From Acidimicrobiia bacterium (GTDB lineage Bacteria > Actinomycetota > Acidimicrobiia > Spongiisociales > ZC4RG35), in contig DATEDN010000079.1 of assembly GCA_035281645.1 (NCBI GenBank), positions 9,407-73,406 on the forward strand: 64,000 bases of DNA. The letters are read 5' to 3'. The position numbers and the translations under genes are program-made. This document shows positions 20,889 through 62,184 of this stretch, piece by piece (position 1 is the stretch's first letter; each line of letters opens with the position of its first letter). Below the pieces are notes generated by a model. That model was not told the origin of the DNA. It saw only the letters and a program-made list of their open reading frames with translations, and ran no database searches.

Positions 20889-20905
20889 AAGACCCCGGGC
20901 TGATC

Positions 20906-22078: not shown

Positions 22079-22106
22079 CTCCAGAATCTGCGGGTCCTAG
22101 GAGCGG

Positions 22107-23316: not shown

Positions 23317-24003
23317 ATGCAGCTCGCCGTCCTGGCCGCTCTCTCCCCATCGCAGAATCGACTGTTCGACAGGCGATTGGCCCACACGGCCGAGGCGATG
23401 GGGCTCGCCCTGACGCGGGCGACCGCCCCAGAGCATGCCGATCTCACCTATGTCTGCGGCTTGCCGGCGAGCCGAATGCTGGGCACGCACTACCCCCTCC
23501 TAGCTCCGGTTCTTCCCTTCGCCCGCTATCAGAGCCAACCCTGGTACTTCGTCGATGTCCTCGCCCGAGAAGAGGACACCGGATTGGGGACGGGGCGTTG
23601 GGCCTACAACCAGACGTCTTCGTTTTCCGGTTGGATGGCCGTCCGTCACGGGCTGCGACTCCACCATGTCGACCCTGATCAATTGGCCTGGGTAGAAACC
23701 GGATCGCACGCCAACTCCCTTTCCGCCCTGAGGAATGGAGCCGCCCATTTGGCGGGCGTTGATTCGATGATCGTGGACCTCGATTCTCAGCTGGCCAAGG
23801 ACTTGACCGTGATCGACTCCTGGGGTCCCTGGCCGACCCCACCTGTCATGGCAGCCCGGTCCCTCGATTCCCGGTTGATCGGCGAGCTGACATCGGCCTT
23901 CCTGGGCGCCGACGAACCAGTTACCTGGGTCGCTCTCGACCCTCGTCACCTCGAACCGATTCAGGTCGTCGCCGGGTCGACTGCAACTTCGGCGGGGGGC
24001 TGA
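23317..24003 (+). CDS. periplasmic-binding-protein-fold protein (PhnD-like?) without an obvious signal peptide
   Basis: 228-aa ORF with weak resemblance to phosphonate/ABC substrate-binding proteins (YVCGLPA..., SGWMAVRHGL). The function is uncertain. Confidence 0.4.
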   Translation: MQLAVLAALSPSQNRLFDRRLAHTAEAMGLALTRATAPEHADLTYVCGLPASRMLGTHYPLLAPVLPFARYQSQPWYFVDVLAREEDTGLGTGRWAYNQTSSFSGWMAVRHGLRLHHVDPDQLAWVETGSHANSLSALRNGAAHLAGVDSMIVDLDSQLAKDLTVIDSWGPWPTPPVMAARSLDSRLIGELTSAFLGADEPVTWVALDPRHLEPIQVVAGSTATSAGG

Positions 24004-26006: not shown

Positions 26007-26848
26007 TCGAACGCCTGACTGATCGAGTCCGCGACCAGATTCACAGCCACTACCAGAGAAGCTATCGCCAGAGCCGGAAACAGAACCGGCCACCAAATGT
26101 TGCCCGTGAGGTACCCATAGTGCTGGGCGATCATCAGCCCCCAATCAGGGATCGACGGCTCGATGCCAAAGCCAAGGAACGAGAGTGCGAGGACGGTGAA
26201 GATCGCATAGCCCAAACGGACCGTGAACTCGACAATGATTACGTTGGCAACATTGGGCAGAATCTCGACGAACAATACGTAGAGGGGATTGTCTCTTCTC
26301 AGTTGGGCGGCGGTGACGTAGTCGAGCTGACGCTCGGAGAGGACCGCCGCCCGCACGGTTTTGGCGATGATCGGAGTGAAGACGAGCCCGATGACGACGA
26401 TCACGCCAAGGGTATTGGGACCGAGAGCAGTCAGGGCGAGCATGCCGGTGATCACCAGCGGGATCGATAGGAAGGCATCGAGAATCCGGCTGAGGATCTC
26501 GTCGAGGATGCCGCCGGCATAGCCGACCAAGAGACCGAGAGCGGTGCCCAGGATCGTTCCCAGCACTGTGGCGGCCAGCGCCACTGTCAGCACCTGGCGG
26601 GCTCCGGCCAGGACCCGGGAGAGGACGTCACGGCCCAACTCGTCGGTGCCCAGCGGATGCACACCGGAGGGGGCTTCGAGCCGGTTAAGCACGTCAGCCG
26701 GAGTACCCAAAGGATCGAAGGGGGTCAGAAAGTCACCAAAGATCGCGAAGACGATCCAAACGACGACGATCGTGGCCCCGACCCAGAAGGTGGCCGACCG
26801 GCGCAAGACCCGCCAGCGTTGCGATCGAGAGGTCTGAGGAATCGTCAC
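26003..26848 (-). CDS. ABC transporter permease (DppC/OppC-like)
   Basis: 281-aa multi-TM protein with the N-terminal pattern and EAA-loop region typical of DppC. 4-nt overlaps on both sides. Confidence 0.85.
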   Translation of the reverse strand: MTIPQTSRSQRWRVLRRSATFWVGATIVVVWIVFAIFGDFLTPFDPLGTPADVLNRLEAPSGVHPLGTDELGRDVLSRVLAGARQVLTVALAATVLGTILGTALGLLVGYAGGILDEILSRILDAFLSIPLVITGMLALTALGPNTLGVIVVIGLVFTPIIAKTVRAAVLSERQLDYVTAAQLRRDNPLYVLFVEILPNVANVIIVEFTVRLGYAIFTVLALSFLGFGIEPSIPDWGLMIAQHYGYLTGNIWWPVLFPALAIASLVVAVNLVADSISQAFE

Positions 26849-27798
26849 CCGGCCCCTGCCAGCCGAATTCGGGGATTGAGCCAGGAATATGCGAGGTCGG
26901 CGAGCAACATCGAAGCCTGGAAAACCGCCCCGACCACCAAGACCCCCCCGGCGAGGAGAGGAAAATCGGCATTCTGGGCGGCGTTGTACAGCAACTGGCC
27001 GATTCCTTGGTAAGAGAAAAGGACCTCGACTACCACCAGACCGCCGATCAGATACCCCACCTGGGAAGCGACCACTGCAATGGTGGGTAGCAAGGCATTT
27101 CGCAGCACTTCGCGCCGGATCACGACCCGCCGAGGGAGACCCTTGAGAATCGCCGTCCGGGTGTAGTCGGCTTCCATTGCCTCAACCACTCCGGCCCGGG
27201 TGATGCGGGCGATATATCCAAACAACACCAGCGTCAAGCAGATTGCGGGCAGGAGCAGGTAGCGGAGCTGGGTGAAAAAACCCGAACCCCTGGGTGCCGA
27301 GGCGGTGCCAGGCAGCCACCCGAGGACGACTGCAAAGACCAGGATCAACACGATCCCGGAGACGAACTCCGGAATCACCGTGGCGGAGAGCCCGCCGACA
27401 GTGATGAGGCGGTCGGTGAGCCTTCCCCGCCGCAAGGCGGCCACGATTCCGCCGAAGATTGACAAGGGAACCACGATCACGAAGGCAAGGGCGCCCAGCT
27501 TGGCCGAGTTGATCAGAGCCCTCCTCACCAGCTCGGATACCGGTCGGGCAAAGGTGATCGAATCTCCGAGATCGCCGGTGACGGCACCGCCGATCCAATC
27601 GGCGTACTGGACCAGTGCCGGCCGGTCGGTTCCCAGTCGGGCGTTGAGGGCGTCGACCGATTCCTGGGTGGCAAACGGGCCCAGCACCCGCCGGCCGACG
27701 TCTCCAGGAAGGAGCTGGGTCCCGATAAACACCAAGACACTCAGGAGGGCAAGCGTGATCAAGGCGAGACCACTGCGGCGCAATATGAACCTAGCCAT
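26845..27798 (-). CDS. ABC transporter permease (DppB/OppB-like)
   Basis: 317 aa. MARFILRRSGLALITLALLSVLVFIGTQLLPGD is the classical DppB N-terminus. Confidence 0.85.
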   Translation of the reverse strand: MARFILRRSGLALITLALLSVLVFIGTQLLPGDVGRRVLGPFATQESVDALNARLGTDRPALVQYADWIGGAVTGDLGDSITFARPVSELVRRALINSAKLGALAFVIVVPLSIFGGIVAALRRGRLTDRLITVGGLSATVIPEFVSGIVLILVFAVVLGWLPGTASAPRGSGFFTQLRYLLLPAICLTLVLFGYIARITRAGVVEAMEADYTRTAILKGLPRRVVIRREVLRNALLPTIAVVASQVGYLIGGLVVVEVLFSYQGIGQLLYNAAQNADFPLLAGGVLVVGAVFQASMLLADLAYSWLNPRIRLAGAG

Positions 27799-27854
27799 CT
27801 AGCGCCGATCGCACTCGCCCGCCGAAGTTGTCGAGGTGGATCGTTGTCCCTAGG

Positions 27855-29633
27855 TCAGGCGAAGGTGCTGTTGATCAAATCGACGTGGCCCATACCAGTG
27901 ACCGCAATTCCCGAGAAGTTCGGTTGCGTGATGGTGATGTGGTCGACGTAGTAGGGGACGATGAACGGCACCTCGTCGTTCAGCAGGGTCTGGATCTCTC
28001 CGGCCAGCTGACGCTGAACGTCGAGATCCGGAGCGCTGGCGAACTGGGCATAAAGGTCGTCGTAGGCCTCATTCACCCAGTGCGAAGCGTTCCAGGTCCC
28101 GTCGCTGAGGAGGGGCGCTGCCATATAGACATTCGGCACTCCCCGATGGCCATAGTTGACGATTCCCATCGATCCGGCCGCAGCCAGCCAGTAGTCGTTG
28201 TAATAGGTCCCGGAGTCATACACCCCAACCTGGAGGTCAATGCCCACCTGAGAGGCCGAGGCCTGAATCAGCTGGGCAAGATCCTCTACCTCGGCAAACT
28301 GCAAGGTATCGAGTGCTGCCGAAAAGCTTCCGACTCCGGCGGCATCCAACAGGCCCTGGGCGGCGGTTAAGTCCTCCTCTCGTTGGGCAGGGGTGTCGGG
28401 GTTGTACATGGGGAAGAGCGACCAGATGGGATGGTCATTGCCTACGGTCCCATAGCCCGCCAAAAGCCCGTCGATCAAAACCTGACGATTGAGCGTCAGT
28501 GCCACAGCTTGGCGAACTCGCTTGTCATTGAAAGGCGGCGCCGAGGTATCGAAGTACACCTGCCGGTGCTGGGCGGTGGAGATGCTGGCGACGTTCGCAT
28601 CCGGGCTCTCCAAGAGTGCTTGCCCGCCAGAGGAGGAAATGTGGGGGATGGTGTCCACCCGTCCCTCTTGGAAAGCACTGACTGCCACTGCCTCGTCGTC
28701 GTACCAGAGCACCTCGAGGCGCTCCGGCTGGGCGCTGTTATCGCCCCAGTAGTTCTGGTTCTTGACAAACGAGGCCGAAACACCTTGCTCGAAGTTTTCG
28801 ATCTGCCAGATCCCCGTGCCGGGAAACTCGGCTTCGTAACTGCCCTCCGCATAGTTGTCCCAGAAGGAGGCGGGGACGATGATGGCGTTGTAGTTGTCTG
28901 AGCTGACGAAGAACGGAAAGCTCCCGTTGGGACGTGCGAGCGTGAACTCGACCGTGGCGTCGTCGAGAGCGACGATGTTCGCTGGGTCGACTCCGAACGT
29001 CTCGTAGGCCGAAGCGGCATTGCCCTCGGCAATATTGTTAAAGACAGCTACTACATCAGCGGCCATCATCGGGGAGCCGTCGTGATAGGTAACGCCTTGT
29101 CGAAGGTGGAACGTCCAGACGTCGAGGGTGTCATTGGGCTCCCAGCTCTCCGCCAGGACCGGGATCAGGTTGAGTTCGGCGTCGGAAAAGGTCAGGTACT
29201 GACCGGTCTGCCCGAGAATCGCCAGGCGCCCCTCGTCGTTCGTTAACACTGGATCAATCGCCCCGGCGGGGGTGATCATCGCCGCGCGGATGGTGCCGCT
29301 TCCGGCCGCACCGGTGGTTCCCGTGGCGCCGGTGGTGGCAGTCGCACCGGTGGTAGTCGGCCCACCAGCCGTCGTTGCCGCGCCGCCGAGGGTGGTAGTG
29401 ACGTCGTCTGAGGCGCAGGCGGTGGCCACAAAGCCCAGAACGGACAACGACATACCGACCATCGTCCCCCGTCGGATGAAGTCGCGGCGGGTGATCTTGC
29501 CAGCCGCATATTCGTCGATGATGTGGTTCTCGATCGGGCTCGCTTTCCGCCGGATGGCGTCTAGTCGCTCCCGAACGAACGGGCTTTTCCTGGCTCTCAT
29601 CTTGATTCTCCTCATTCCGGCGGACCTGTTCAC
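27855..29633 (-). CDS. ABC substrate-binding protein, family 5 (peptide/opine/nickel type), Tat-lipoprotein
   Basis: Twin-arginine motif RRDFIRRG followed by lipobox VATAC, a Thr/Gly/Ala linker and a family-5 body of about 500 aa. The exact start (29633, 29615 or 29600) is uncertain. Confidence 0.85.
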   Translation of the reverse strand: MNRSAGMRRIKMRARKSPFVRERLDAIRRKASPIENHIIDEYAAGKITRRDFIRRGTMVGMSLSVLGFVATACASDDVTTTLGGAATTAGGPTTTGATATTGATGTTGAAGSGTIRAAMITPAGAIDPVLTNDEGRLAILGQTGQYLTFSDAELNLIPVLAESWEPNDTLDVWTFHLRQGVTYHDGSPMMAADVVAVFNNIAEGNAASAYETFGVDPANIVALDDATVEFTLARPNGSFPFFVSSDNYNAIIVPASFWDNYAEGSYEAEFPGTGIWQIENFEQGVSASFVKNQNYWGDNSAQPERLEVLWYDDEAVAVSAFQEGRVDTIPHISSSGGQALLESPDANVASISTAQHRQVYFDTSAPPFNDKRVRQAVALTLNRQVLIDGLLAGYGTVGNDHPIWSLFPMYNPDTPAQREEDLTAAQGLLDAAGVGSFSAALDTLQFAEVEDLAQLIQASASQVGIDLQVGVYDSGTYYNDYWLAAAGSMGIVNYGHRGVPNVYMAAPLLSDGTWNASHWVNEAYDDLYAQFASAPDLDVQRQLAGEIQTLLNDEVPFIVPYYVDHITITQPNFSGIAVTGMGHVDLINSTFA

Positions 29634-29692
29634 TCGATCGAAGTCCGCGATATTCCCACCATACCGATCGACGGCCTCGTCAGGGCCGAAAA

Positions 29693-31240
29693 CTAGGACT
29701 CGGGAGGTGCGCCCCCCTCGGCGGTCCGCCGGCTGACGAATTCGTCCAGCTCTTGCTTGATGCCGTCGTCGAGAGCGGGGGGCTCAAAGTCGGCAAGTAT
29801 CTGCTTCCAGACGGCATTGGCCCGTTGAGCGGCGGTCAACGAACCGCCTTCCTCCCACTGACCAAAGTTTGCCCTGGTGAAGACCACCGGCTCGTAAAAT
29901 GCCTTCTCATATCGCTCCAACGTGTGGTCAATGCCGAAGAAATGGCCCCCAGGCTGCACGGTGTGGATCGCTTCGAGCCCCATCTCGCCCGCCGACGAAT
30001 CCAGGGGCAAGAACAACTCCGCAAACATCTGTGCCATCTCGACGTCGAGGATGAACTTCTCATAGGACGCCGACAGACCTGACTCGAGCCAGCCGGCCGT
30101 GTGCAAGATGAAGTTCGCACCCCCCAAGGCGGCGCCCATCATGTTCATCATTGACTCGTAGCCCGCTTGGGCGTCAGGGATGTTCGACGTGCAAACCGCC
30201 GATGACCGCCAGGGGAGCCCGATGTGGCGCGCCAGCTGGCCGCTGGCAAAGGCCGCCTTGGCGGCCTCGGGAGTACCGAAGGCCGGGGCTCCCGACCGCA
30301 TATCGACATTGGAGGTGAATGCCCCGTAGACCACCGGAGCTCCGCTGCGACTTATCTGTGACAGAGTGATGCCAGCCAGGGCCTCGGCGTGCTGTAGCAC
30401 CAGGGCACCGGCGAGCGTGACCGGTGCCATTGCCCCCGAGAGGGTGAAAGGGGTCACGATCGCGGGCTGATTCATCTCGGCAAACTGAATCACCCCTAGG
30501 GCCATGGGGACGTCGAGTTGGCGAGGTGAGTTGGTATTGATGACCGTGTAGCAGTAGTGACCGGCGGAGAATTCGTCCTCGGAGAGACCCAAGCCGATCC
30601 GCAACATCTCGAGACAGTCCGTCACCTGCCCAATTCCGCGGGAGTAGATGAACGGCGCCTTGTCCGAAAGGGCCAGATAAGCCCTAGTGGTTTCGAGGTG
30701 GCGGAAGTTGACCGGGACGTCCTGGGGCTCCACCTGTTGACTGGTGACATGGATCACGTCAAAGGCCTGGGATAGCCGCAGCAGGTCGGAAAAGTCTTGG
30801 AGCGTTCCCGACCGCCGCCCGCGATCGAGATCGACCGCATGCGGAGGTCCGCCTACCGGTGCCAGCACGACGTTGTACCCGCCGATCCGGACATTTCTCT
30901 CGGGGTTGCGGGCTACCAATTCGAATTCGGCCGGAGCCGACTTCAAGGCGGAGCTAACGAGCTCGGGGTCGATTCTGACCATGAAGTCAGCATCAACCGA
31001 CGCACCGGCCTTCTCGAAACGGCGTCGGCCATCCTCAAGCAGAACCTTGATCCCGTCCTCGGCGAGAATCGTCAGAGCGGCCTGGTGGATCCCGGCGATT
31101 TCGTCGTCGCTCAGAACCCGGAGCGGTTGGAAGGGGTTGATCAAACGCCGGTAACGCGGCTCCACCCGACCGGCAAGAGGCTGCCTCTCACGCCGGGGCC
31201 GCCTGCGAGTAGCCACTTCGGAGCCAGCTTGCTGGTTCAC
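29693..31240 (-). CDS. MttB-superfamily (trimethylamine methyltransferase family) protein, non-pyrrolysine, paralog 1
   Basis: 515-aa uninterrupted ORF with a GTG start and no in-frame TAG. MttB-family blocks include INPFQPLRVLSDDEIAGIHQAALTILAEDG and TPFTLSGAMAPVT...FTSNVDMRSGAPAFGTPE. Confidence 0.85.
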   Translation of the reverse strand: MNQQAGSEVATRRRPRRERQPLAGRVEPRYRRLINPFQPLRVLSDDEIAGIHQAALTILAEDGIKVLLEDGRRRFEKAGASVDADFMVRIDPELVSSALKSAPAEFELVARNPERNVRIGGYNVVLAPVGGPPHAVDLDRGRRSGTLQDFSDLLRLSQAFDVIHVTSQQVEPQDVPVNFRHLETTRAYLALSDKAPFIYSRGIGQVTDCLEMLRIGLGLSEDEFSAGHYCYTVINTNSPRQLDVPMALGVIQFAEMNQPAIVTPFTLSGAMAPVTLAGALVLQHAEALAGITLSQISRSGAPVVYGAFTSNVDMRSGAPAFGTPEAAKAAFASGQLARHIGLPWRSSAVCTSNIPDAQAGYESMMNMMGAALGGANFILHTAGWLESGLSASYEKFILDVEMAQMFAELFLPLDSSAGEMGLEAIHTVQPGGHFFGIDHTLERYEKAFYEPVVFTRANFGQWEEGGSLTAAQRANAVWKQILADFEPPALDDGIKQELDEFVSRRTAEGGAPPES

Positions 31241-31262
31241 GACTGAACTCTACGATCCAGAT

Positions 31263-33701
31263 GTGGCACGGCAGGCGAGCGTGGTGGTGATCGGTGCCGG
31301 GATCATCGGCTCGAGCGTCGCTTATCACCTGGCCGACCTCGGAGTCGAGGGAATCGTCGTACTCGACAAGGGAGCGCTAGCGGACAACGACGGCTCCACA
31401 TCGCACGCCCCCGGCGGTCTCCGCACTCTCACCATCTCGAAGTTTTTCACCAGGCTCGGAATCGCCTCGCGCCAGCTCTACGACCTCCTACCGCTCGCCG
31501 AGCCCGGTCAAGAGCAGTTCTTTCGCACGGGATTTCTTCAGGTGGCCTCGTCGGTGGCACGCTTCGAGAGTTACAAGCGCATTCAAGAGATCGGCTCGAG
31601 CCTCGGGGTTCCCTCCGCCCTCCTGTCGCCCGAGCAAACCGCCGAGATGATCCCTCTTCTCGACTCCTCCCAGATCATCGGCGGAATGTTTTCGCCGACT
31701 TCCGGAGTGATCAAAACCAGCCTGGTGGCGACCTCGATGCAACATGTCGCGGCCGCAACCGGTCGAGCAGTCTTTTACTCCGACACCGAAGTCACGGATG
31801 TTGTGGTCGAGGGTGGCCGCGTTCGCGGGGTGAGGACCTCCAATCCCGAGATCGAACGAATCGAATGTCCGCAGGTCGTCCTCTGCACGAACATCTGGGC
31901 GCCAGTGCTGGCGGCGAAGGTCGGAATCAATATGCCGCTCTTCCCCGGCGAGCATCAATACATCTTCACGACCCCGGTTCCGGATCTCGCCGATCGAGCC
32001 GATCGCGAGGTCACCATGCCCATCTCCACGATCGACGATATCTCGATCTATTTTCGCCAGCATCACGACCGGCTAGGGATCGGTAGCTACCACCACGAAG
32101 CGCGGCTGGTCGACCCATGGGCGTTGCCGAAACGAGCCCAGCTTCCGTTCACTCCAGCCGACTTCGACGAGGCGTGGCACTTGATGCGGAAGCACCTTCC
32201 GGCTCTGCATCAAGTCGAAGTAGATACCGGATTCAACGGCATGTTCTCTTTCACCGCCGACCACTATCCAATTCTGGGCGAGTCCCCCATCAAGGGTCTA
32301 TGGGCAGCTGTGGGAGCCTGGCTCTCCTATGCCTCGGAGGTGGGAAAGGTGATGGCCCGCTGGATCACGGAAGGTGATCCAGGAATGGACGTGTCCGTGG
32401 CCGACATCAACCGCTTTCACGATCACCAGTCCAATCACTCGTTTCTATCCCGGCAAAGCAAATATTTCTACGAGATTGGTTTTGACATCCTTCATCCCAA
32501 CGAGGTGGCCTCCTCGGTGCGCAACCTCCGACTTGCTCCCTACCACGATCGCACCGAACGGTTGGGCGCGGTCTACGTCCCCTTCGCCGGCTACGAGACT
32601 CCCTACTACTACGAGTCCAACGGCCCCCTCGTGGATCGATATTCAGATCGAATCCCGCGCCGGCAGGGATACGACGCCACTTCTTGGTCGCCGATCATTG
32701 GGGCCGAGCACCTGGCGTTGCGCGAAAAGGCCGGGTTGATCGATTGGTCGGCGTCGATTGGCCCCGTCGAGGTCTCGGGCCCGGGGAGTCTCTCCTTCTT
32801 GCAGTACCTGTGCACGAACAACATCGACATTTCCATCGGAGCGGCTACTTACACCCTGGTCCTCACTCCGCGAGGGACCGTCAAGCGGGACGTAACCATC
32901 GCTCGCCTCTCCCAGGAGCGCTTTTGGCTGCTGACGGGAAAGTCCAACCTTCCAGCGGAACTGGCCTATTACCGGTCATTTGCCCCAGCCGACGGATCGG
33001 TACAGATCGTCGATCGCTCCGAGCAGTTTGCCGCAGTCGGGCTATGGGGCCCCAGGGCCCGTGAGATCCTCGAGGCGGTCACGGACGCCAACCTTTCCAA
33101 CGAGGCGTTTCCCTGGTACTCGGTACGACACATTGGAGTGGGCATGGCTCCGGCAACGGCCCTTCGCATCTCATATGTGGGCGAGTTGGGCTGGGAGATT
33201 TACGTTCCCGCGAGCTTCGGACGTCATCTTTGGGACGCCCTCTGGAGTGCCGGGAGAGATCACGGCCTCACGGCAGTGGGCATGGCTTCCCTGTTCTCGT
33301 TGCGAATCGAAAAGGGCTACCGCCTGATCGGCAGCGATCTCAACCCCGAAATCACACCTCGACAGGCCCAAATGTCGTGGTTGCTCGACAAAAGCAAAGA
33401 TTTTCTCGGGCGGGACGGCGCCTCTGCCGATGGACACCGTTTGGCGACACTCCGCTTCGATGATCCGGCTGCCCTTATGTACTCGTGGACTCCGGTCTAC
33501 CGCTTAGACGACGTGGTCGGCTGGATAGCAAGCGGAGAATTCGGTTACTCGGTAGGCGCCTTCATCGCCCATGCGTTCGTTCCACAAGAGCTCACAGTGC
33601 CGGGTACGAGGCTACGGGTCCGATACACCGGCCAATTCTTCGAAGGGGAAGTGGTCAAAGGACCCCTCTGGGATCCCACCAACCTCCGCCTCAGGGCCTA
33701 G
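31263..33701 (+). CDS. dimethylglycine oxidase/dehydrogenase-like flavoenzyme (DAO domain + GcvT folate domain), paralog 1
   Basis: 812 aa. VVVIGAGIIGSSVAYHL FAD motif, GSTSHAPGG (candidate covalent-flavin His region), and a C-terminal aminomethyltransferase-type domain (SYVGELGWEIYVP, LRIEKGY). Confidence 0.85.
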   Translation: MARQASVVVIGAGIIGSSVAYHLADLGVEGIVVLDKGALADNDGSTSHAPGGLRTLTISKFFTRLGIASRQLYDLLPLAEPGQEQFFRTGFLQVASSVARFESYKRIQEIGSSLGVPSALLSPEQTAEMIPLLDSSQIIGGMFSPTSGVIKTSLVATSMQHVAAATGRAVFYSDTEVTDVVVEGGRVRGVRTSNPEIERIECPQVVLCTNIWAPVLAAKVGINMPLFPGEHQYIFTTPVPDLADRADREVTMPISTIDDISIYFRQHHDRLGIGSYHHEARLVDPWALPKRAQLPFTPADFDEAWHLMRKHLPALHQVEVDTGFNGMFSFTADHYPILGESPIKGLWAAVGAWLSYASEVGKVMARWITEGDPGMDVSVADINRFHDHQSNHSFLSRQSKYFYEIGFDILHPNEVASSVRNLRLAPYHDRTERLGAVYVPFAGYETPYYYESNGPLVDRYSDRIPRRQGYDATSWSPIIGAEHLALREKAGLIDWSASIGPVEVSGPGSLSFLQYLCTNNIDISIGAATYTLVLTPRGTVKRDVTIARLSQERFWLLTGKSNLPAELAYYRSFAPADGSVQIVDRSEQFAAVGLWGPRAREILEAVTDANLSNEAFPWYSVRHIGVGMAPATALRISYVGELGWEIYVPASFGRHLWDALWSAGRDHGLTAVGMASLFSLRIEKGYRLIGSDLNPEITPRQAQMSWLLDKSKDFLGRDGASADGHRLATLRFDDPAALMYSWTPVYRLDDVVGWIASGEFGYSVGAFIAHAFVPQELTVPGTRLRVRYTGQFFEGEVVKGPLWDPTNLRLRA

Positions 33702-33733
33702 CCAGAGAATTCGCTTTAGCCTCCCCGGGCACC

Positions 33734-34927
33734 GTGAGTTTGCTTTGGAACGCTCGGGTAATCGATCGCGACGGGATCCGGGAAGGACTGGCGATCTCGA
33801 TCTCTGGTGACCGAATCGGCGCGATCGAGAAGGGCGGAGGCGACGCGCCGGCGGGGGCGATTGACCTTGCTGGCAAGTCCCTGCTGCCGGGGCTGATCGA
33901 CGCCCACAACCACTTCCTCTCCGAAACCGATCGCAGTCCCGGATTCGGGCCACCTCCGCCTCGGCATGGCGATGCTCCTCGCCCGCGCGCACTCGGGCAC
34001 TACATCCTGGCTGCCGCAGCGCGGGCGATAATCCGCAGTGGATTCACCAGCATCCGCGACGTCGGCTGTTATGACGACGAGGCTCTCGCCGCCGGTCAGG
34101 CGATCGATCTCGGACTGATCCCCGGGCCGCGCATCTTTTCATGTGGGCGGATCATCTCCGCCACCGCCCCAGGTGGGGCAATCTTTGGCTCCATGTACCG
34201 TGAAGCCGATGGCCCATGGGAAATGCGAAAAGCAGTTCGGGAGCAAATCCGGCGGGGTGGCCACTTCATCAAATTCATGGCCACCGGTGCCCGGTCGGTG
34301 GTCCTCGAGGATCCCGAGCCTCCGCAAATGACCACCGAGGAGATGACGGCGATTGTCGATGAGGCTCATCGGATGGGAGTTCGGGTGGCGGCTCACGCCG
34401 AGGGCCTGGAAGGTACGCGCTGGGCTCTTCGGGCCGGAGCCGACACCATCGAGCATGGGCTGGCATTGCATCGTGATCCCGAGTTGCTCGCCTTGATGGC
34501 CGCCAACGGAACCGTGCTGGTTCCCACTCTGACCACATTCCATGATCTGGCCGAACGCTTTGCCGACGAGTTCTCTCCGCCCCTGGTGGAGCAGGCCAAA
34601 CGACAGTTGGAGGAGGCTTACAAGACAGTCGCCGCCGCGCACGCGGCCGGGGTGACGATCGCGGTTGGCTATGACAGCGGACCTCCGGGCGCTTCGGCCC
34701 AGGAGATGCTTCGACTGGCGCATGCGGGCCTGAGCGGGATAGAGGTCATCGGCGCCGCCACTCGGGGCGGTGCAGCCGCCCTTGGGCGCGAAGATCTCGG
34801 ATCGATCAGGAGTGGCGCACTCGCTGACTTGGTGGTCGTGGATGGAGAGCCCGACCAAAATCTCGCCGTCCTGGGAGATCCGGAAGCCATCCATTTCGTC
34901 ATCAAGGGCGGGGAGTTGGTGTCGTGA
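33734..34927 (+). CDS. amidohydrolase-superfamily protein (COG1228-type; imidazolonepropionase/Xaa-Pro-dipeptidase relatives)
   Basis: PGLIDAHNHF metal-binding HxH motif, VAAHAEG, TIEHG, and a C-terminal ALADLVVVDG. The start is provisionally GTG 33734; the track ORF starts at 33485, inside the previous gene. Confidence 0.7.
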   Translation: MSLLWNARVIDRDGIREGLAISISGDRIGAIEKGGGDAPAGAIDLAGKSLLPGLIDAHNHFLSETDRSPGFGPPPPRHGDAPRPRALGHYILAAAARAIIRSGFTSIRDVGCYDDEALAAGQAIDLGLIPGPRIFSCGRIISATAPGGAIFGSMYREADGPWEMRKAVREQIRRGGHFIKFMATGARSVVLEDPEPPQMTTEEMTAIVDEAHRMGVRVAAHAEGLEGTRWALRAGADTIEHGLALHRDPELLALMAANGTVLVPTLTTFHDLAERFADEFSPPLVEQAKRQLEEAYKTVAAAHAAGVTIAVGYDSGPPGASAQEMLRLAHAGLSGIEVIGAATRGGAAALGREDLGSIRSGALADLVVVDGEPDQNLAVLGDPEAIHFVIKGGELVS

Positions 34928-37371
34928 GCATGCGGGTGGTCGTAGTCGGCTCGGGGATCGTCGGCTCATCCGTGGCCTATCACCTCGCCCGCCTGGGCTG
35001 GACCGATGTAGTCGTAGTCGATCGCGGCGATCCGGTCGAGAATCCCGGTTCCACCTCACATGCCCCCGGCGGGGTGGTGGCGCTATCGCATAACAAGACC
35101 CTCACCCAACTCGCCGTCTACTCGAGCCGGCTCTACGCCACCCTCGAGCCCTTCTCTCCCGACCGCCAGATGGTCAACCGAGTCGGGATCCTCGACGTGG
35201 CGATCTCGCCCCGCCGGATGGCCGATCTGGTGCGGCTGCACGGAGAATCTCTCAGCTTCGAGACGGGGGCCAGGCTTCTCACCCCCACCGAAACGGCCGA
35301 CATCCATCCGCTGATCAACCCCAAGGCGATGGAGGGTTCCATCTTCATGGTCGAGGGCCAGACGGTGGCCCCTGCCCACGTCAGCGGGGCACTGCAGCGA
35401 GATGCGGGGGTCGACGTGGTCGGTCAGACAGAGGTGACGGAGATCGATGCTGCCGACGGCCGAGTTCGGGCGGTGATGACAAGCAATCCCGAGCAGGCGC
35501 GTATCGAATGCGATCACGTCGTCATCGCCACCAACATCTGGGCACCGCTCCTGGGCGACGGTCTCGGGGTACCAATCCCGCTGATGGGATACGAACATCA
35601 ATATCTCCGAACCGGACCCCTTCCTGAGTTGGATCGGTTCGATCCTTCCCAACCCGAGGACGAGATTGTCTATCCCTCGGTGCGAGAGCTCGACACCTAT
35701 ATCTACTTCCGCCAGCATTGGAACTCATTCGGAGTAGGTAGCTACCGCCACGCTCCCCGGCCGGTCCCCGCCCCACTGGTGGGGCCCAATGCCATCCATC
35801 CTTTTACGCCCGACGACTTTGAAGGCGAAGCTTGGGAGAAGGCGCGCCGGATTTTCCCGCTGCTGGCCAACACTGACTTCCGGACCTACCCACGGACGAT
35901 CAACGGAATCTTCGCCTTTCCCGTCGACGGCATGCCCATCGTCGGCCCCACCCCCATCGAGGGGGTGTGGGTAGCGGCGGGTTCTTGGCTCACCCACGCC
36001 GGGGGAGTCGGCAAGACGCTGGCCGAATGGATGACCTCCGGTGACACGGAATGGGATCCGCGTCTGATCGACGTCAATCGCTTCCATGGCTTTCAGACCA
36101 CGCGGCGCTTCATCGAAAAGGTCTGCGACAAGAACTACGCCGAGATTTACGACATCATTCACCCCCGGGAGCCGATCACCGAACCGCGCAATGTGAGGCT
36201 TTCCCCATTCGACGAGAGGCACCGGGCCCGAGGGGCGGTCTTCACGACCTTCGCCGGCTACGAACTCCCCAACTGGTTCCAGTCCAACTCCGGCCTCGTC
36301 GAAGAATTCGCCGACCAGATCCCGACGCGGAGCGGTTGGGCCGCCGAGCACTGGTCCCCGATCCAGGGAGCCGAGCACCTCGCCACTCGCAATTCCGTTG
36401 GCCTCCTCGACCTCACCGGACTTTCCATCATCGAAGTCTCCGGCCGCGACGCCTTGAGCGCCGTGCAGTGGCTTTGCTCCAACCAAATGGATGTGGCGCC
36501 CGGAAGAGTCGTGTACACCACGTGGCTTACCAAGGCGGGCGGAGTGCGCAGAGATCTGGCCGTAGCTCGCCTCGAGGCGGACCGGTTCTGGATGTTCGTC
36601 GGTGAAGGCACGAGACCGCGTGATCTCGACTGGGTGCTTCGCCACACTGAGGAATACGACGTCGCAGTTGCTGACATCTCCGATTCCTTCACCGCTCTCG
36701 GGTTATGGGGCCCCAATGCCCGGAAGGTGCTGGAGCGAGTTTCATCCACCTCTCTCGACTTCGGATATTTTCGGGCCCGGTGGATCGACCTCGACTACAC
36801 CCGGGCATTGGCGGTGCGGATTTCTTACGCCGGCGAGTTCGGGTGGGAATTGCACTTTCCCCCCGAGGCCGCCCTCCCGGTGTGGGATCGGCTGATCGAT
36901 GCCGGTGCAGGCGTTGGTTTGATTCCTTTCGGCTTCGGCGCCTTTGACTCCTTGCGGTTGGAAAAGGGTTATCGAGGCTGGGGAATCGACGTCCACACCG
37001 AATACAACCCTTATGAGGCGGGGCTGGGGTGGACGGTCCGACTGGACAAAGGCGATTTTCTTGGCGCCAGCGCCTGTCAGCGCCTCGTAGCCGAACCGCT
37101 CAAGAAGAAGCTGGCTTGTCTGACCTTCGACCAAGCCCAGGACGTAGTCCTGGGATACGAGCCGATCATGGCTGGCGACCAGTGCCTGGGTCACGTCACC
37201 AGTGCGAACTTTGGCTACTCGGTTGGAAAGTCCATCGCCTATGGCTATCTCCCCGCCGAGGCCGCGGTGGAAGGAACGAAGGTTGAGGTGATCTATTTCG
37301 GCGAGCGGATTTCGGCCACAGTTGCCCCCGATCCGCTCTTCGATCCCAAGATGACCCGAATGAAGGACTGA
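34924..37371 (+). CDS. dimethylglycine oxidase/dehydrogenase-like flavoenzyme, paralog 2
   Basis: 815 aa. VVVVGSGIVGSSVAYHL, GSTSHAPGG, ATNIWAP, YIYFRQH, and a C-terminal GcvT-type domain (SYAGEFGWELHFP, LRLEKGY). GTGA overlap with the amidohydrolase stop. Confidence 0.85.
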   Translation: MSMRVVVVGSGIVGSSVAYHLARLGWTDVVVVDRGDPVENPGSTSHAPGGVVALSHNKTLTQLAVYSSRLYATLEPFSPDRQMVNRVGILDVAISPRRMADLVRLHGESLSFETGARLLTPTETADIHPLINPKAMEGSIFMVEGQTVAPAHVSGALQRDAGVDVVGQTEVTEIDAADGRVRAVMTSNPEQARIECDHVVIATNIWAPLLGDGLGVPIPLMGYEHQYLRTGPLPELDRFDPSQPEDEIVYPSVRELDTYIYFRQHWNSFGVGSYRHAPRPVPAPLVGPNAIHPFTPDDFEGEAWEKARRIFPLLANTDFRTYPRTINGIFAFPVDGMPIVGPTPIEGVWVAAGSWLTHAGGVGKTLAEWMTSGDTEWDPRLIDVNRFHGFQTTRRFIEKVCDKNYAEIYDIIHPREPITEPRNVRLSPFDERHRARGAVFTTFAGYELPNWFQSNSGLVEEFADQIPTRSGWAAEHWSPIQGAEHLATRNSVGLLDLTGLSIIEVSGRDALSAVQWLCSNQMDVAPGRVVYTTWLTKAGGVRRDLAVARLEADRFWMFVGEGTRPRDLDWVLRHTEEYDVAVADISDSFTALGLWGPNARKVLERVSSTSLDFGYFRARWIDLDYTRALAVRISYAGEFGWELHFPPEAALPVWDRLIDAGAGVGLIPFGFGAFDSLRLEKGYRGWGIDVHTEYNPYEAGLGWTVRLDKGDFLGASACQRLVAEPLKKKLACLTFDQAQDVVLGYEPIMAGDQCLGHVTSANFGYSVGKSIAYGYLPAEAAVEGTKVEVIYFGERISATVAPDPLFDPKMTRMKD

Positions 37372-38900
37372 TGCCGCGGGAAGGAGCCAGGCGGGCCGAA
37401 CGTCGGGCTAGCCGCAGTGGTGGGGTCCGCCAACTGGCCTGGCGCTCACTTCGTAACCCCTATCACCCGATTGACGTCATCTCGACCGACCAAATCGAGG
37501 CCATCCACCAAACGTCATTGCGAATCCTGGCCGAAATCGGGATGGACTTTCTCCACCCCGAGGCACTATCGATTTTCTCCGAGGCGGGAGCGATGGTGGA
37601 AGCCGGCAGCAATCGGGTCCGCTTCGACCCCGACTGGGTTATCGACAAGGTGTCAACCGTGCCAGACACCTTCGCGCTACATGCCCGCAACCCCGAGCAC
37701 AACGTCACAGTCGGTGGAAACCACATCAATTTCGCCACCGTCGCCTCTCCCCCTAACGCTTCCGATGCGGATCGCGGACGACGCAGTGGCAACTTCGACG
37801 ACTTCCAAAACCTGATTCGGTTGGGGCAGAGCTTCAACATCATCCATCTCTTCGGTGGGTACCCGGTCGAGCCGGTCGATCTCCCCCCGAGTACGCGCCA
37901 TCTCGATTGCCTTTCCGCTGTCGTAACCCTGGGGGACAAGGCGTTTCACTCGTATGCATTGGGGCGGGAGCGGATGACAGACGCGATCGAGATCGCTCGC
38001 ATTGCCCGGGGGGTCAGCGCGGAACAGCTCCGTGGCGAGCCCTCGCTGTTCACTGTGGTCAACACTTCCTCACCGCTTCGTCTCGACGGGCCGATGATCG
38101 AGGGGCTGATCGAGATGGCGCGCATGGGTCAGGTGGTGATCGCCACTCCCTTCACCCTTTCGGGGGCGATGGCACCCGCCACCATCGCCGGGGCCCTGGC
38201 CCAGCAGAACGCAGAGGCACTGGCCACGATCGTGCTGATCCAGTGCGTCAATCCCGGTGCCCCGGCGATGTATGGGGGATTCACCTCCAACGTCGACATG
38301 CGCTCGGGCGCCCCCGCCTTCGGCACTCCGGAGTACACCAAAGCGGCGCTGGCGGGCGGCCAGCTCGCCCGTCGATACGGATTTCCCTATCGATCCTCGA
38401 ACGCCTGTGCCGCCAATGCGGTCGATTCCCAGGCCGCGTATGAGGCCGAGATGTCGACCTGGGGAGCGGTCATGGGGCACGCCAACTTGATCATGCATGG
38501 CGCCGGTTGGATGGAAGGGGGACTGACGGCCTCGTTCGAGAAGTTCATTATCGATGTGGAGATCCTGCAGATGATGAGTGAATTCCTGCAGCCGCTGACG
38601 GTGGACGAGGCCAGCCTGGCCCTCGACGCCATTGCCGAGGTGGGGCCCGGTGGACATTTCTTCGGCGCTGCCCACACTCTCGAGCGCTACGAAAGCGCCT
38701 TCTACTCTCCGATTGTCTCTGACTGGCGAAACTTCGAGAGTTGGGAACTGGCCGGGTCTCCCACCGCCGAGCAGCATGCCAACCGGGTTTGGAAAGAGGC
38801 TCTGGAAACCTTTTCCCCGCCTCCCCTCCCCGACGACCGGGCCGCCGAGCTCGCCGATTTCGTCGAACGGCGCCGGTCCGAGGGAGGCGTCAGCGCGTGA
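37371..38900 (+). CDS. MttB-superfamily protein, non-pyrrolysine, paralog 2
   Basis: 509 aa with no in-frame TAG. Long blocks are shared with paralog 1 (TPFTLSGAMAP, FTSNVDMRSGAPAFGTPE, EKFIIDVE). 1-nt TGATG overlap with the upstream oxidase. Confidence 0.85.
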   Translation: MPREGARRAERRASRSGGVRQLAWRSLRNPYHPIDVISTDQIEAIHQTSLRILAEIGMDFLHPEALSIFSEAGAMVEAGSNRVRFDPDWVIDKVSTVPDTFALHARNPEHNVTVGGNHINFATVASPPNASDADRGRRSGNFDDFQNLIRLGQSFNIIHLFGGYPVEPVDLPPSTRHLDCLSAVVTLGDKAFHSYALGRERMTDAIEIARIARGVSAEQLRGEPSLFTVVNTSSPLRLDGPMIEGLIEMARMGQVVIATPFTLSGAMAPATIAGALAQQNAEALATIVLIQCVNPGAPAMYGGFTSNVDMRSGAPAFGTPEYTKAALAGGQLARRYGFPYRSSNACAANAVDSQAAYEAEMSTWGAVMGHANLIMHGAGWMEGGLTASFEKFIIDVEILQMMSEFLQPLTVDEASLALDAIAEVGPGGHFFGAAHTLERYESAFYSPIVSDWRNFESWELAGSPTAEQHANRVWKEALETFSPPPLPDDRAAELADFVERRRSEGGVSA

Positions 38901-39288: not shown

Positions 39289-40467
39289 GTGCGGGCGACT
39301 GATCTGCTGGCTCAGATAGAGACGATCGGCCGGGAGCCCACCACAGGCGGCTACCGACGATTTTCCTGGACCGCAGCCGACGCCGAACTACGGCAATGGT
39401 TCTCCTCCCAGGCCAAAACCAGGGGACTATCCCTCGAGGTCGACCGCAATGGCAATCTGTGGGCCTACCGGGGCGACCCGGTGCCCGGCGGGGTCGTGGC
39501 GGTCGGCAGTCATCTCGATTCGGTCCCTGACGGCGGCCAGTTCGACGGACCGCTGGGAATCGCTTCCGCCTTCGCAGCCCTCGATCTCATGGCCGGCCAG
39601 GGGGTCGATCCACCTAGTCCGCTGGCGGTCGTGGGCTTCGTCGAGGAAGAAGGAGCCCGCTTCGGGGTGGCCTGTCTCGGATCCCGGCTCGGCACCGGGT
39701 CGATCGAGCCCGAGAAGGCCGCGTTGCTCAGCGATGGCGAGGGTGTCACCTGGGCCGAAGCGATGGATCGGGCGGGGCTCGACGCAGGCTCGATCGGGGC
39801 AGACCAACCACGACTCGAGCAGTTGCGATGTTTTGTCGAGCTCCACATCGAGCAGGGTCGAGCCCTGGAACCGGCCGGGGCAGCTGTTGGTATAGGCACT
39901 GAGATTTGGCCGCACGGCCGCTGGCGATTCGTATTCGGGGGAGAGGCCAACCACGCCGGCACCACCGCCATGGACGATCGTCAGGATCCGATGCCCAGGC
40001 TGGCAGAAACCATTCTCCAGGTGACAGAGGACGCCCGCCGCCTAGGCGCCCGGGCAACTTTTGGACGGCTCCTGGTCGAACCGAACGGGGTCAATGCGAT
40101 CCCGTCGCTGGTGACCGGCTGGCTCGACGCTCGCGCTCCCAACCAGGCTTTGTTGGACCAGGTCGTCGGATCTCTTCATTCTCGCCCGGGAATCTCGGTC
40201 ACGACGCAATCTTCATCACCGGCTGTCCACTTCGACCCGGCGCTACGAGCGGGCGTAGAAGAGGTCCTTCCCTCTCTGCCTCCGATCCCGACTGCGGCAG
40301 GCCACGACGCCGGGATCCTGGCGGGGGCCGGGGTACCAACCACGATGCTCTTTGTTCGCAACCGCAGCGGGGTCTCCCATTCCCCTAAGGAACATGCCGA
40401 CCCGGGCGACATCGAGGCCGGCGTCGAGGCCCTTGCTCGGGTGATCGCTCATCTGGCTGGAAAATGA
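39289..40467 (+). CDS. M20-family Zn-dependent amidohydrolase (allantoate amidohydrolase / N-carbamoyl-amino-acid hydrolase family)
   Basis: 392 aa with a GTG start. GGYRRFSWT, VAVGSHLDSVPDGGQFDGPLG, and the HA/E motifs of AllC/HyuC-type hydrolases. Confidence 0.8.
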   Translation: MRATDLLAQIETIGREPTTGGYRRFSWTAADAELRQWFSSQAKTRGLSLEVDRNGNLWAYRGDPVPGGVVAVGSHLDSVPDGGQFDGPLGIASAFAALDLMAGQGVDPPSPLAVVGFVEEEGARFGVACLGSRLGTGSIEPEKAALLSDGEGVTWAEAMDRAGLDAGSIGADQPRLEQLRCFVELHIEQGRALEPAGAAVGIGTEIWPHGRWRFVFGGEANHAGTTAMDDRQDPMPRLAETILQVTEDARRLGARATFGRLLVEPNGVNAIPSLVTGWLDARAPNQALLDQVVGSLHSRPGISVTTQSSSPAVHFDPALRAGVEEVLPSLPPIPTAAGHDAGILAGAGVPTTMLFVRNRSGVSHSPKEHADPGDIEAGVEALARVIAHLAGK

Positions 40468-41729
40468 CGTCGTTCTGGTGCCAACAAGCATGGATCTCGG
40501 GCCAGGCCGTGCCGTCGGTGGCCATCGAAGCGAGCACCGACGGGAAGATCGCTGCCGTCGAGGTAGGAGTCGATCCGGGCAACCGCCATCGGTTGGACGG
40601 CTTGGTGTTCCCCGGGCTGGCCAACGCTCACTCCCACGCCTTTCACCGCGCTCTCCGGGGAAGAGCCTCGACCCAGAAGGACTTTTGGGCCTGGCGGGAG
40701 GCGATGTACAGGGTCGCCGACGGCCTCGACCCCGATTCCTACCTCGACTTGGGCACAAGGGTCTATCGGGAGATGGCCCTCGCCGGTTTCACCGCCGTCG
40801 GCGAGTTTCACTACCTCCACCACGGACCCGGCGGAGTGCCTTATTCGAATCCCAACGCCATGGGTGAAGCTCTTCGACATGCTGCGGCGAGGGCCGGGAT
40901 TCGACTGACCCTCCTCGATACGTGCTATCTGGCGGGAGGTATTGGAATCGAGCTTTCGCCCACCCAGCAACGTTTCGCCGACGGGTCGGTGGAGGCTTGG
41001 AGCCAGCGACGGCAACTGCTGACAGAAGACGCCAACACTCGGATCGGAGTCGCGATCCACTCGGTGAGAGCGGTCAAGCCTCCCGATCTGGCTCTAGTCG
41101 CGACGGAGGCAGAACGCCTTCCCCTCCACGTCCACATCTCCGAACAGGTGGCCGAGAACGAGGCGGCGCAGGCTGCCTACGGCCTTTCCCCCACCGAACT
41201 CCTGCAGCGGGCGGGGGCCTTGGGTCCACTCAGTACCGCAGTTCACGCCATTCATCTCAGCGCCCACGACCGCCAAATCCTGAGTGGATCGGGGACAACG
41301 GTTTGCGCCTGCCCCACCACCGAGGCCGATCTCGGCGACGGCATCGGTCCATTCTCGATTCTGGCTCGCTCCGGCGTACCCCTAGCCGTGGGTAGCGATC
41401 AGCACGTGCGAATCGACCCCTTCGAAGAAGTGCGGCGCCTCGAGATGGATCAACGTCTCGCGCTGGGAGATCGCGGCCATTTCAGTGCTTTCGACCTGGT
41501 AGAGATCTTGAGCGAGAACGGTTACCGATCGATTGGTTGGGATGAGGGCGGCAAAATCGCGCTCGGGGGCCTCTGTGACTTGGTGGCGGTCCGCACCGAC
41601 ACCATTCGGACCGCGGGCGCCGACTTGTCGTCACTGATTTGGTCAGCCGGGCCGGGAGACATATCGGAAGTAGTAGTGGGTGGGAGGACCATTGTCCGTG
41701 ATGGGATCCACCTGATCAACGGTGATTGA
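40464..41729 (+). CDS. hutF: formimidoylglutamate deiminase
   Basis: 421 aa. PGLANAHSHAFHRALRGR...DFWAWREAMY is characteristic of HutF. 4-nt overlap with the upstream M20 gene. Confidence 0.8.
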   Translation: MTSFWCQQAWISGQAVPSVAIEASTDGKIAAVEVGVDPGNRHRLDGLVFPGLANAHSHAFHRALRGRASTQKDFWAWREAMYRVADGLDPDSYLDLGTRVYREMALAGFTAVGEFHYLHHGPGGVPYSNPNAMGEALRHAAARAGIRLTLLDTCYLAGGIGIELSPTQQRFADGSVEAWSQRRQLLTEDANTRIGVAIHSVRAVKPPDLALVATEAERLPLHVHISEQVAENEAAQAAYGLSPTELLQRAGALGPLSTAVHAIHLSAHDRQILSGSGTTVCACPTTEADLGDGIGPFSILARSGVPLAVGSDQHVRIDPFEEVRRLEMDQRLALGDRGHFSAFDLVEILSENGYRSIGWDEGGKIALGGLCDLVAVRTDTIRTAGADLSSLIWSAGPGDISEVVVGGRTIVRDGIHLINGD

Positions 41730-45310: not shown

Positions 45311-45372
45311 CAGAAAACGGTAGTGGGCACCGACCTGACCCCGCCCGACGAAGGGCGTGACAGAATCGAGTC

Positions 45373-62126: not shown

Positions 62127-62184
62127 GACGAAGTCCTCTCGCTCACGACGGCAACGTTTCGCTGACCACCGGTTGGGCCAGTGT

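Follow-up and report, generated by a model that had tools for sequence, protein, structure and literature searches.

We analyzed a 64-kb stretch of a soil Acidimicrobiia metagenome-assembled genome (GCA_035281645.1, contig DATEDN010000079.1; referred to here as the window, and coordinates are those of the window unless a locus is named), in which two genes for non-pyrrolysine (non-Pyl) MttB-family methyltransferases and two genes for dimethylglycine (DMG) oxidase-type flavoenzymes (DMGO1 and DMGO2) are embedded in a wider methylated-amine island. Gene coordinates and families were taken from the open reading frame (ORF) listing and Pfam scans of the window, which confirmed the layout of five genes proposed earlier from the DNA letters by a model (referred to here as the sequence-only reading). 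The genes of this core are:

MttB1, 29693-31240, minus strand: 515 aa, non-pyrrolysine MttB-family (MtgB-type) methyltransferase (PF06253, E=6e-194)
DMGO1, 31263-33701, plus strand, divergent from MttB1: 812 aa, DMG-oxidase/dehydrogenase-type flavoenzyme (DAO+FAO_M+GCV_T+GCV_T_C)
Amidohydrolase, 33734-34927, plus strand: 397 aa, PF01979, of the Xaa-Pro / Xaa-Arg dipeptidase-carboxypeptidase group
DMGO2, 34924-37371, plus strand: 815 aa, second DMG-oxidase/dehydrogenase-type flavoenzyme, with the same four domains as DMGO1
MttB2, 37371-38900, plus strand: 509 aa, non-pyrrolysine MttB-family methyltransferase (PF06253, E=5e-199)

All four junctions were confirmed on the sequence. MttB1 and DMGO1 diverge across a gap of 22 nt (40 nt in the public gene call, which starts DMGO1 six codons later), and 32 nt separate DMGO1 from the amidohydrolase gene. 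The amidohydrolase gene overlaps DMGO2 in GTGA, DMGO2 overlaps MttB2 in TGATG, and DMGO2 is translationally coupled to both of these neighbors. The methyltransferases and the flavoenzymes form two paralogous pairs, as had been proposed from shared motifs, all of which we found in both copies; identity is 52% within the MttB pair (E=7e-172) and 40% within the DMGO pair (E=0). Since MttB2 is closer to its alphaproteobacterial orthologues (59-70% identity) than to MttB1, our data indicate that the pairs are old paralogues belonging to separate orthologous groups and not the product of a recent duplication.

The PF06253 profile is matched from position 3 to 500 of its 500 positions by residues 12-510 of MttB1 and from position 4 to 500 by residues 7-506 of MttB2. 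Neither ORF has an internal stop, hence neither contains an in-frame TAG (UAG, pyrrolysine) codon, in agreement with the sequence-only reading, and both proteins score 317 bits against TIGR02369, the Pyl-type trimethylamine methyltransferase model, which is under its cutoff of 525. MttB2 has 4YYC as its best PDB match (340 bits), scores about equally against the biochemically proven, cobalamin-dependent MtgB of Desulfitobacterium hafniense (2QNE/9YCE, 336 bits), and scores much lower against Pyl-MttB (7XCL, 161 bits). Both flavoenzymes align over their full length with the DMG oxidase of Arthrobacter globiformis (1PJ5), which is the best PDB match of DMGO1 (515 bits) and is matched by DMGO2 with 576 bits and with the STSHAPG flavinylation motif, including its histidine, aligned; the motif GSTSHAPGG occurs in both enzymes. 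Their four-domain DAO-FAO_M-GcvT-GcvT_C architecture is that of the A. globiformis enzyme and of mammalian DMGDH (5L46, 4PAB), while in an NCBIfam scan no equivalog reached its cutoff for either DMGO.

The amidohydrolase scores 236 bits against the NCBIfam Xaa-Pro dipeptidase model, under the cutoff of 500, and its PDB matches are 9KOV (182 bits, the top match, with an uninformative name), the Xaa-Pro dipeptidase 2QS8 (166 bits), and the L-Arg carboxypeptidase 3MTW (158 bits). Among related loci, the amidohydrolase gene accompanies DMGO2-MttB2 in L008, L009, and L093 and is absent from L003, L010, and L091. In L091, the position of the amidohydrolase gene is taken by a glyoxalase gene that resembles window 22096-22468.

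Four residues bind glycine betaine in MtgB, of which the carboxylate-binding R312 and H348 are essential for activity, while Y97 and F356 are an aromatic pair that cages the trimethylammonium group and a non-aromatic replacement of either raises the Km for glycine betaine several hundred-fold (Picking et al., PMC13080624). In an alignment, the equivalents of R312 and H348 are kept in MttB1, MttB2 (R341 and H376), and six homologues, so that by this comparison neither methyltransferase is degenerate, a point on which the sequence-only reading had asked for a check. The equivalent of Y97 is a glycine in MttB1 and an alanine in MttB2 (A125), and that of F356 is a glycine in both (G384 in MttB2). 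Since the aromatic pair is absent, the substrates of MttB1 and MttB2 are probably not glycine betaine. The retained residues suggest that they are probably acidic quaternary amines that are bound otherwise than glycine betaine is in MtgB.

The adjacency of MttB-family and DMG-oxidase-type genes is conserved in other genomes. An MttB2 scan of species-representative genomes yielded 80 loci, to which four contexts from exact-protein look-ups were added. A fused DAO+GcvT gene lies directly beside the MttB2-type gene in 17 of these 84 loci and within 10 kb in 25, and unsupervised neighbor clustering gave fused DAO+GcvT as the commonest neighbor family of MttB2-type genes. Of the six Acidimicrobiia genome loci that are closest, five (L007-L010 and L017) show direct adjacency, while in the sixth (L012) a single DMGO gene is followed by an MttB1-like gene and then by an MttB2-like gene. 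The order is DMGO then MttB in Acidimicrobiia and MttB then DMGO in Alphaproteobacteria, and the alphaproteobacterial partner belongs to a different DAO+GcvT subfamily (260-350 bits only). The opposite order and the different subfamily indicate that the pairing originated repeatedly, in support of a functional relay; the two-enzyme relay of the sequence-only reading, in which MttB takes the first methyl group and the flavoenzymes the later ones, gains further support from DAO+GcvT being the commonest neighbor. A strict one-to-one pairing of the two families did not hold up. In addition to L012, sister contigs (described below) carry MttB1 with both DMGO1 and DMGO2 and without MttB2, and a relative on a 2.93-Mb contig has DMGO2-MttB2 only. 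One MttB and two DMGO-type enzymes would be enough to remove the three methyl groups of a trimethylammonium compound. Neighbor clustering also showed a recurrent short protein (226-271 aa, PF12974, phosphonate-binding-like) beside MttB/DMGO clusters in Acidimicrobiia and Proteobacteria (5 loci), with copies at window 23317-24003 (plus strand), L003 6848-7528, where it overlaps the DMGO start, L074 14382-15173, and L021 13489-14304.

The sequence-only reading had noted by eye that no coding sequence in the 64 kb bears a cobalamin-binding signature, and this holds under profile searches. Pfam scans of about 58 window ORFs gave no match to PF02310 or PF02607, and neither the B12-binding and pterin-binding profile hidden Markov models nor the Acidimicrobiia MtgC, DUF1638, and MtgD proteins matched any six-frame window ORF of at least 50 aa at E<=1. 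An Rfam scan of the window gave no cobalamin riboswitch. Among the called genes of a further 9.5 kb to the left on the same contig, no B12-binding or pterin-binding family was found.

In relatives, corrinoid machinery stands beside the same module. A metagenome scan with MttB1 recovered sister contigs (L091 and L093) that align collinearly with the window, with a nucleotide identity of 76%; L091 7474-17170 corresponds to window 33701-24007, and L091 3473-5897 matches window 37353-34938. Protein identity to the sister contigs is 82-90% over the block of DMGO1, MttB1, and SBP5-DppBC-DppDF (76-90% with DMGO2 included), and with respect to the L091 orthologues DMGO1, at the same position, is 82% and DMGO2 76% identical. 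The MttB1 orthologues of the sister contigs (85-86% identity) lie about 7.5 kb from MtgC and MtgD. About 1.8 kb beyond the gene for the ATPase of an ATP-binding cassette (ABC) importer, L091 and L093 encode MtgC (PF02607+PF02310), DUF1638, and MtgD (PF00809), and the NCBI name for the exact sister MtgC is 'corrinoid protein [Acidimicrobiia bacterium]'. A look-up of this exact MtgC read 24 carrier contigs and retrieved ten places (L099-L108; NCBI, JGI, and ENA), of which L100 and L104 are the L091 and L093 contigs. Nine of the ten have one layout, and the tenth begins inside the solute-binding gene and then continues identically: DMGO1, MttB1 on the opposite strand, SBP5-DppB-DppC-DppDF, CHRD and SelD, and MtgC-DUF1638-(98 aa)-MtgD-(392 aa), followed by a RACo reductive activase, a third MttB, MTHFR, IclR, and formate-tetrahydrofolate (THF) ligase (FTHFS). 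By its gene content, the sister cluster is a complete corrinoid methyltransferase system with one-carbon (C1) oxidation.

An unlinked arrangement is directly seen on contig JBBDQN010000002.1 (Acidimicrobiia LejiaC_62_17, 63.6 kb). It carries an MtgC of the same 90%-identity cluster in an MtgC-DUF1638-MtgD-RACo operon (L098), divergent from a third DMGO-type gene and from genes for an electron-transfer flavoprotein (ETF), and a DMGO2-MttB2 pair (L010) lies about 28 kb from this operon. Among the 84 MttB2-type loci, MtgC is linked in L032 and L074, MtgD in L022, and MtgE-like genes in 8 loci; the alphaproteobacterial MttB2 orthologues lie within 10-14 kb of these genes. The L032 gene set is near-identical to that of the window (MtgE, enolase-superfamily gene, alcohol dehydrogenase, SoxA/B-like genes, and an MttB2 orthologue) and has MtgC and DUF1638 in addition. 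Identity between the Acidimicrobiia MtgC and an alphaproteobacterial one is 73%; with an alphaproteobacterial MtgC as the query, the 120 top matches were all at least 82% identical, and all taxon names shown were alphaproteobacterial or Pseudomonadota, with no Acidimicrobiia among them. Representatives at 50% identity bore no taxon names. Two other routes did not reach an Acidimicrobiia MtgC: from P0308, a putative MtgC-MtgD fusion of actinobacterial type, the search arrived at Streptosporangiaceae-type proteins and L090, and the context of P0271 was unrelated.

Several further observations concern these corrinoid clusters. A DUF1638 gene lies directly 3' of the corrinoid protein gene in Alphaproteobacteria and Acidimicrobiia (L032 1402-2163, L091 19711-20301, L098 10699-11313, and L090 12909-14045), and in L090 it shares one gene call with a RACo C-terminal domain; DUF1638 is a candidate accessory factor of corrinoid systems. 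Genes for SelA, SelB, and SelD-like AIRS proteins flank the sister Mtg cluster (L091 50-3279 and 17883-18917, and L099 8863-9906), which suggests a selenoprotein nearby or in the pathway, e.g., formate dehydrogenase. A 744-aa protein (P0360) is a natural fusion of an MttB-family domain with a C-terminal B12-binding domain, a Rosetta-stone link of the two components; it is apparently MtgB-type, as judged by eye from the Tyr in its APGYGSPF motif, which resembles the context of MtgB Y97.

Our data suggest that the window encodes part of a standard aerobic corrinoid MtgB-type system, with MtgC, MtgD, and the activase elsewhere in the genome, and we consider this reading quite likely. We infer that the corrinoid genes exist because relatives carry them, an MtgE-like gene is present in the window, and both MttB genes are intact and conserved. 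The sequence-only reading had taken the missing corrinoid neighbor as the sign of a corrinoid-independent aerobic variant, and this is not supported: at least ten sister contigs carry MtgC-DUF1638-MtgD-RACo-MttB3-MTHFR-FTHFS after the MttB1 module, so that what the reading had itself named as refuting it is seen in close relatives. Its premise that the corrinoid protein is usually encoded adjacently is out of date, since the genes are unlinked in Ruegeria pomeroyi and Phaeobacter inhibens (PMC12478193; bioRxiv 10.64898/2025.12.19.695462). Given that unlinked and shared MtgC and MtgD are published in aerobes, the lack of a neighboring corrinoid gene is no evidence for a new mechanism.

Several points weigh against a standard corrinoid system here. 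The aromatic pair with which MtgB cages glycine betaine is absent from both MttB1 and MttB2. No MtgC, MtgD, DUF1638, or RACo was found in coordinates 18930-92473 of 93418 (about 74 kb) of contig ena:ERZ27257124:k141_2044726; a corrinoid protein and a methylcorrinoid:THF methyltransferase are encoded in close relatives and were not found in the readable part of the contig itself. Ten genes of the window's left flank are collinear with L098, and this synteny predicted MtgC after the ETF genes, where a DUF2079 gene and a PBP-family gene follow ETF-beta instead. Past window 24007, right after the ABC ATPase, similarity to the sister contigs is lost, and it is there that the sisters carry the MtgC operon. 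The presumed corrinoid dependence of MttB1 and MttB2 comes from homology and from context in relatives, not from this genome.

An alternative is a corrinoid-independent relay, in which the methyl group would pass from MttB1 and MttB2 to something other than a corrinoid protein, e.g., to THF on the coupled DMGO or to homocysteine via the MtgE-like protein. Such a relay would fit the tight start/stop overlap of DMGO2 with MttB2, the roughly 74 kb around the genes in which B12-binding and pterin-binding genes were not found, the finding that no such gene lies within 10 kb of MttB2-type genes at any Acidimicrobiia locus of the genome scan, and an MtgC operon lost, or never present, at the position where the sisters carry it. 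However, orthologues with 85% identity are clustered with MtgC, MtgD, and a corrinoid reductive activase, the pair and the MtgC operon occur together on one contig from Acidimicrobiia, at a distance of 28 kb, and no sequence feature separates MttB1 and MttB2 from corrinoid-linked orthologues. Furthermore, all characterized family members methylate cob(I)alamin (PMC13080624, PMC8604678, PMC12155760), and in aerobes, according to published work, corrinoid genes are normally unlinked (PMC12478193). We therefore regard a corrinoid-independent relay as very unlikely; the observation behind it is real and the idea of a relay is reasonable, but the claimed novelty, i.e., the lack of a corrinoid partner, is not supported.

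The sharp end of sister similarity exactly before the MtgC operon, together with the corrinoid genes not found in the readable part of the contig, might also suggest decaying remnants, i.e., a module copied without the MtgC operon and left with non-functional MttB genes. This is highly improbable, since all five genes are full length and free of internal stops, their Pfam matches are full length, and protein identity to the sisters (82-90%) exceeds nucleotide identity (76%), as under purifying selection. Several relatives also have MttB2 and DMGO2 without an adjacent MtgC, one of them with MtgC 28 kb away.

The island around the core contains the following features:

About 1555-2559 and 19980-20939: OpuAC-type betaine-binding proteins (Pfam)
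2724-3797, plus strand: stand-alone MetH-type homocysteine S-methyltransferase (MtgE-like; PF02574), adjoining an OpuA-type betaine ABC transporter
14102-17794, minus strand: SoxBDA-like (sarcosine-oxidase-like) set
18855-19955: enolase-superfamily gene
23961-29633, minus strand: peptide/opine-type ABC importer operon downstream of MttB1 (Pfam)
27855-29633, minus strand: SBP_bac_5 protein of the importer operon (Pfam)
26845-27798 and 26003-26848, minus strand: permeases of the importer operon (Pfam)
23961 to about 26006, minus strand: fused double ATPase of the importer operon (Pfam)
39289-40467, plus strand: M20 carbamoylase/allantoate-amidohydrolase-type hydrolase, downstream of MttB2
40464-41729, plus strand: HutF-type deiminase, downstream of MttB2

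The M20 hydrolase and the HutF-type deiminase exceed their NCBIfam cutoffs (NF006770, 539 bits with a cutoff of 372, and NF006681, 560 bits with a cutoff of 362). Both genes also lie 3' of MttB2 in L003 and L008, and in L010 a HutF-like gene alone was detected. The PF02574 protein matches the homocysteine domain of Thermotoga maritima MetH best in the PDB (167 bits, compared to 56-63 bits for BHMT) and scores ~300 bits against the PF02574 genes beside MtgC and MttB in L032 and L074, which is consistent with it acting as an MtgE and not as another homocysteine methyltransferase. The MtgE-like gene may be a marker of split methionine synthase in the Acidimicrobiia lineage. Farther upstream in the island are genes for a P450, an OpuAC protein, the enolase-superfamily enzyme, a zinc-dependent alcohol dehydrogenase, and sarcosine oxidase A/B-like proteins. 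The genes for ETF alpha and beta are found outside the window, about 9 kb beyond its left end.

The SoxBDA-like set consists of a 708-aa alpha subunit with an unusual combination of an N-terminal 2Fe-2S Fer2_4 domain and GcvT, a 121-aa ORF without a Pfam match, and a DAO beta subunit; the same trio also adjoins a DMGO-MttB pair in L006. The island looks modularly rearranged, with a sharp breakpoint at 24007 relative to the sister contigs and with the block of ABC importer, MttB1, DMGO1, and amidohydrolase (about 23961-34927) absent from L003, which shares the flanking genes. Two ATP-grasp genes and a glycogen/starch-synthase-like glycosyltransferase at 42879-48020 are unrelated to the MttB finding, and relatives L001 and L003 have paired ATP-grasp genes at the matching place. 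The sole Rfam match in the window is a glmS ribozyme/riboswitch (RF00234, 98 bits) at 62179-62342 on the minus strand, directly 5' of glmS (60294-62126, minus strand).

The betaine-related genes of the island raise the question of plain glycine betaine catabolism, in which MttB2 or both methyltransferases would be MtgB proper, DMGO2 a dimethylglycine dehydrogenase, and the SoxBDA-like genes would finish sarcosine, with no new substrate involved. The two OpuAC-type betaine-binding proteins, the SoxA/SoxB-like genes nearby, and the DMG oxidase of A. globiformis as the closest match of both DMGOs are in keeping with this pathway, and glycine betaine is the substrate of the published aerobic MtgBCD system (PMC12478193). 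On the other hand, both MttBs lack the Y97/F356 aromatic pair (PMC13080624), the 52% identity of the MttBs and 40% identity of the DMGOs argue for more than one substrate, and the importer that goes with the MttB1 module is of the peptide/opine type rather than the OpuA type, with a dipeptidase-like amidohydrolase as a further companion of the module. We consider plain glycine betaine catabolism unlikely. One may speculate that the peptide-type importer and the dipeptidase-like amidohydrolase point to a peptide-like or N-acyl substrate of that module. Two more specific substrates were rejected. Hercynine (histidine betaine) had been considered from the HutF-type deiminase and a weak HutI similarity of the amidohydrolase, but the window lacks HutH and HutU, and the amidohydrolase falls into the Xaa-Pro/Xaa-Arg dipeptidase group. 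A proline-betaine pathway would have the gene at 18855-19955 as an HpbD-like epimerase, for which the PDB gave generic mandelate-racemase-family matches only (<=109 bits).

The closest published parallel is found in marine bacteria. In aerobic R. pomeroyi, glycine betaine is demethylated by PF06253 proteins with the corrinoid protein MtgC and the methyltransferase MtgD, whose genes lie elsewhere in the genome and which, together with MtgE, also serve as a split methionine synthase; mtgBCD often has genes for later demethylation in its vicinity (Mausz et al., PNAS 2025, PMC12478193). In R. pomeroyi and P. inhibens, MtgC and MtgD are unlinked and shared by several PF06253 paralogues, which number four in P. 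inhibens and up to seven in a single genome among marine bacteria (PMC12478193; bioRxiv 10.64898/2025.12.19.695462), and in P. inhibens a 2025 preprint reports phenotypes of mtgB1 and mtgC deletions, cobalt dependence, and ETF induction (bioRxiv 10.64898/2025.12.19.695462). Like the window, the marine MtgBCD(E) system belongs to an aerobe and has several PF06253 methyltransferase paralogues, a stand-alone MetH-type homocysteine module (MtgE), and DMG dehydrogenase-type later genes and ETF in the pathway. Its corrinoid protein and methyl-corrinoid:THF methyltransferase are shared and lie away from the mtgB genes, as would probably be so in the genome of the window, and the sister Acidimicrobiia clusters, like the marine system, have MTHFR (cf. 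MetF2) and C1-oxidation genes. The systems differ in phylum; the marine work did not extend to Acidimicrobiia, and no actinobacterial name turned up when the PNAS supplements (PMC12478193) were searched. In contrast to the marine system, the window substrates are probably not glycine betaine, and one module comes with a peptide-type ABC importer and a dipeptidase-like amidohydrolase.

Among anaerobes, D. hafniense MtgB belongs to the same fold family as MttB2. The MtgB/MtgC/MtgA/RamA system of D. hafniense, reportedly from Ticak et al. 2014, consists of the same set as the sister clusters, i.e., a methyltransferase, a corrinoid protein, a pterin-binding methyltransferase, and a reductive activase. 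The equivalents of its R312 and H348 are conserved in the window MttBs, whereas Y97 and F356 are not; in this anaerobe all components are adjacent, and the methyl group feeds anaerobic respiration, whereas that of the window would presumably enter aerobic THF-linked C1 oxidation. Eubacterium limosum has non-Pyl MttB paralogues for proline betaine, carnitine, gamma-butyrobetaine, and phosphocholine (MtpB, MtcB, MtyB, and MthB), which by their published description keep R312 (H348 less so) and not the aromatic pair, as do MttB1 and MttB2 (PMC13080624). Several substrate-specific enzymes use one corrinoid protein in E. limosum, as MttB1 and MttB2 probably would. Unlike the window, this anaerobic acetogen has no flavoenzyme for follow-up demethylation beside its MttB-family genes. 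Systems of this kind are thus already known in anaerobes (2014 onward) and in aerobes (2025), and what is new is their presence in Acidimicrobiia.

We propose that MttB1 and MttB2 would each transfer one methyl group from an acidic quaternary amine to the Co(I) of the corrinoid protein MtgC, from which the pterin-binding methyltransferase MtgD would pass it to THF, while a RACo/RamA-type activase would keep the corrinoid reduced. The genes for MtgC, MtgD, and the activase would lie beyond the roughly 74 kb read and are probably common to both MttBs. DMGO1 and DMGO2 would then demethylate the tertiary and secondary amine products oxidatively, with their GcvT domains capturing the C1 unit on THF and their electrons probably passing to the ETF whose genes lie left of the window. 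The peptide-type ABC importer may take up the substrate of the MttB1 module, and the amidohydrolase, M20 hydrolase, and HutF-type deiminase may process the carbon-nitrogen skeleton.

If a standard corrinoid system is indeed the best explanation, little is new in kind: aerobic cobalamin-dependent betaine demethylation would be extended from marine Proteobacteria to metagenome-derived Acidimicrobiia. There is only a slight chance that the two MttB enzymes work here without a dedicated corrinoid protein, e.g., with free cobalamin, or with the MtgE-like module or the THF-binding flavoenzyme coupled to them as the methyl acceptor. More likely is a milder possibility, namely that the two modules demethylate quaternary amines so far assigned to no MttB member, of which one would enter the cell through a peptide-type ABC transporter. 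For annotation, our data carry the warning that a missing corrinoid neighbor tells nothing about mechanism. Our data also point to two orthologous groups of MttB that probably act on compounds other than glycine betaine, and to a recurrent cassette of one MttB with one or two DMG-oxidase-type enzymes, which could strip a trimethylammonium compound of all three methyl groups.

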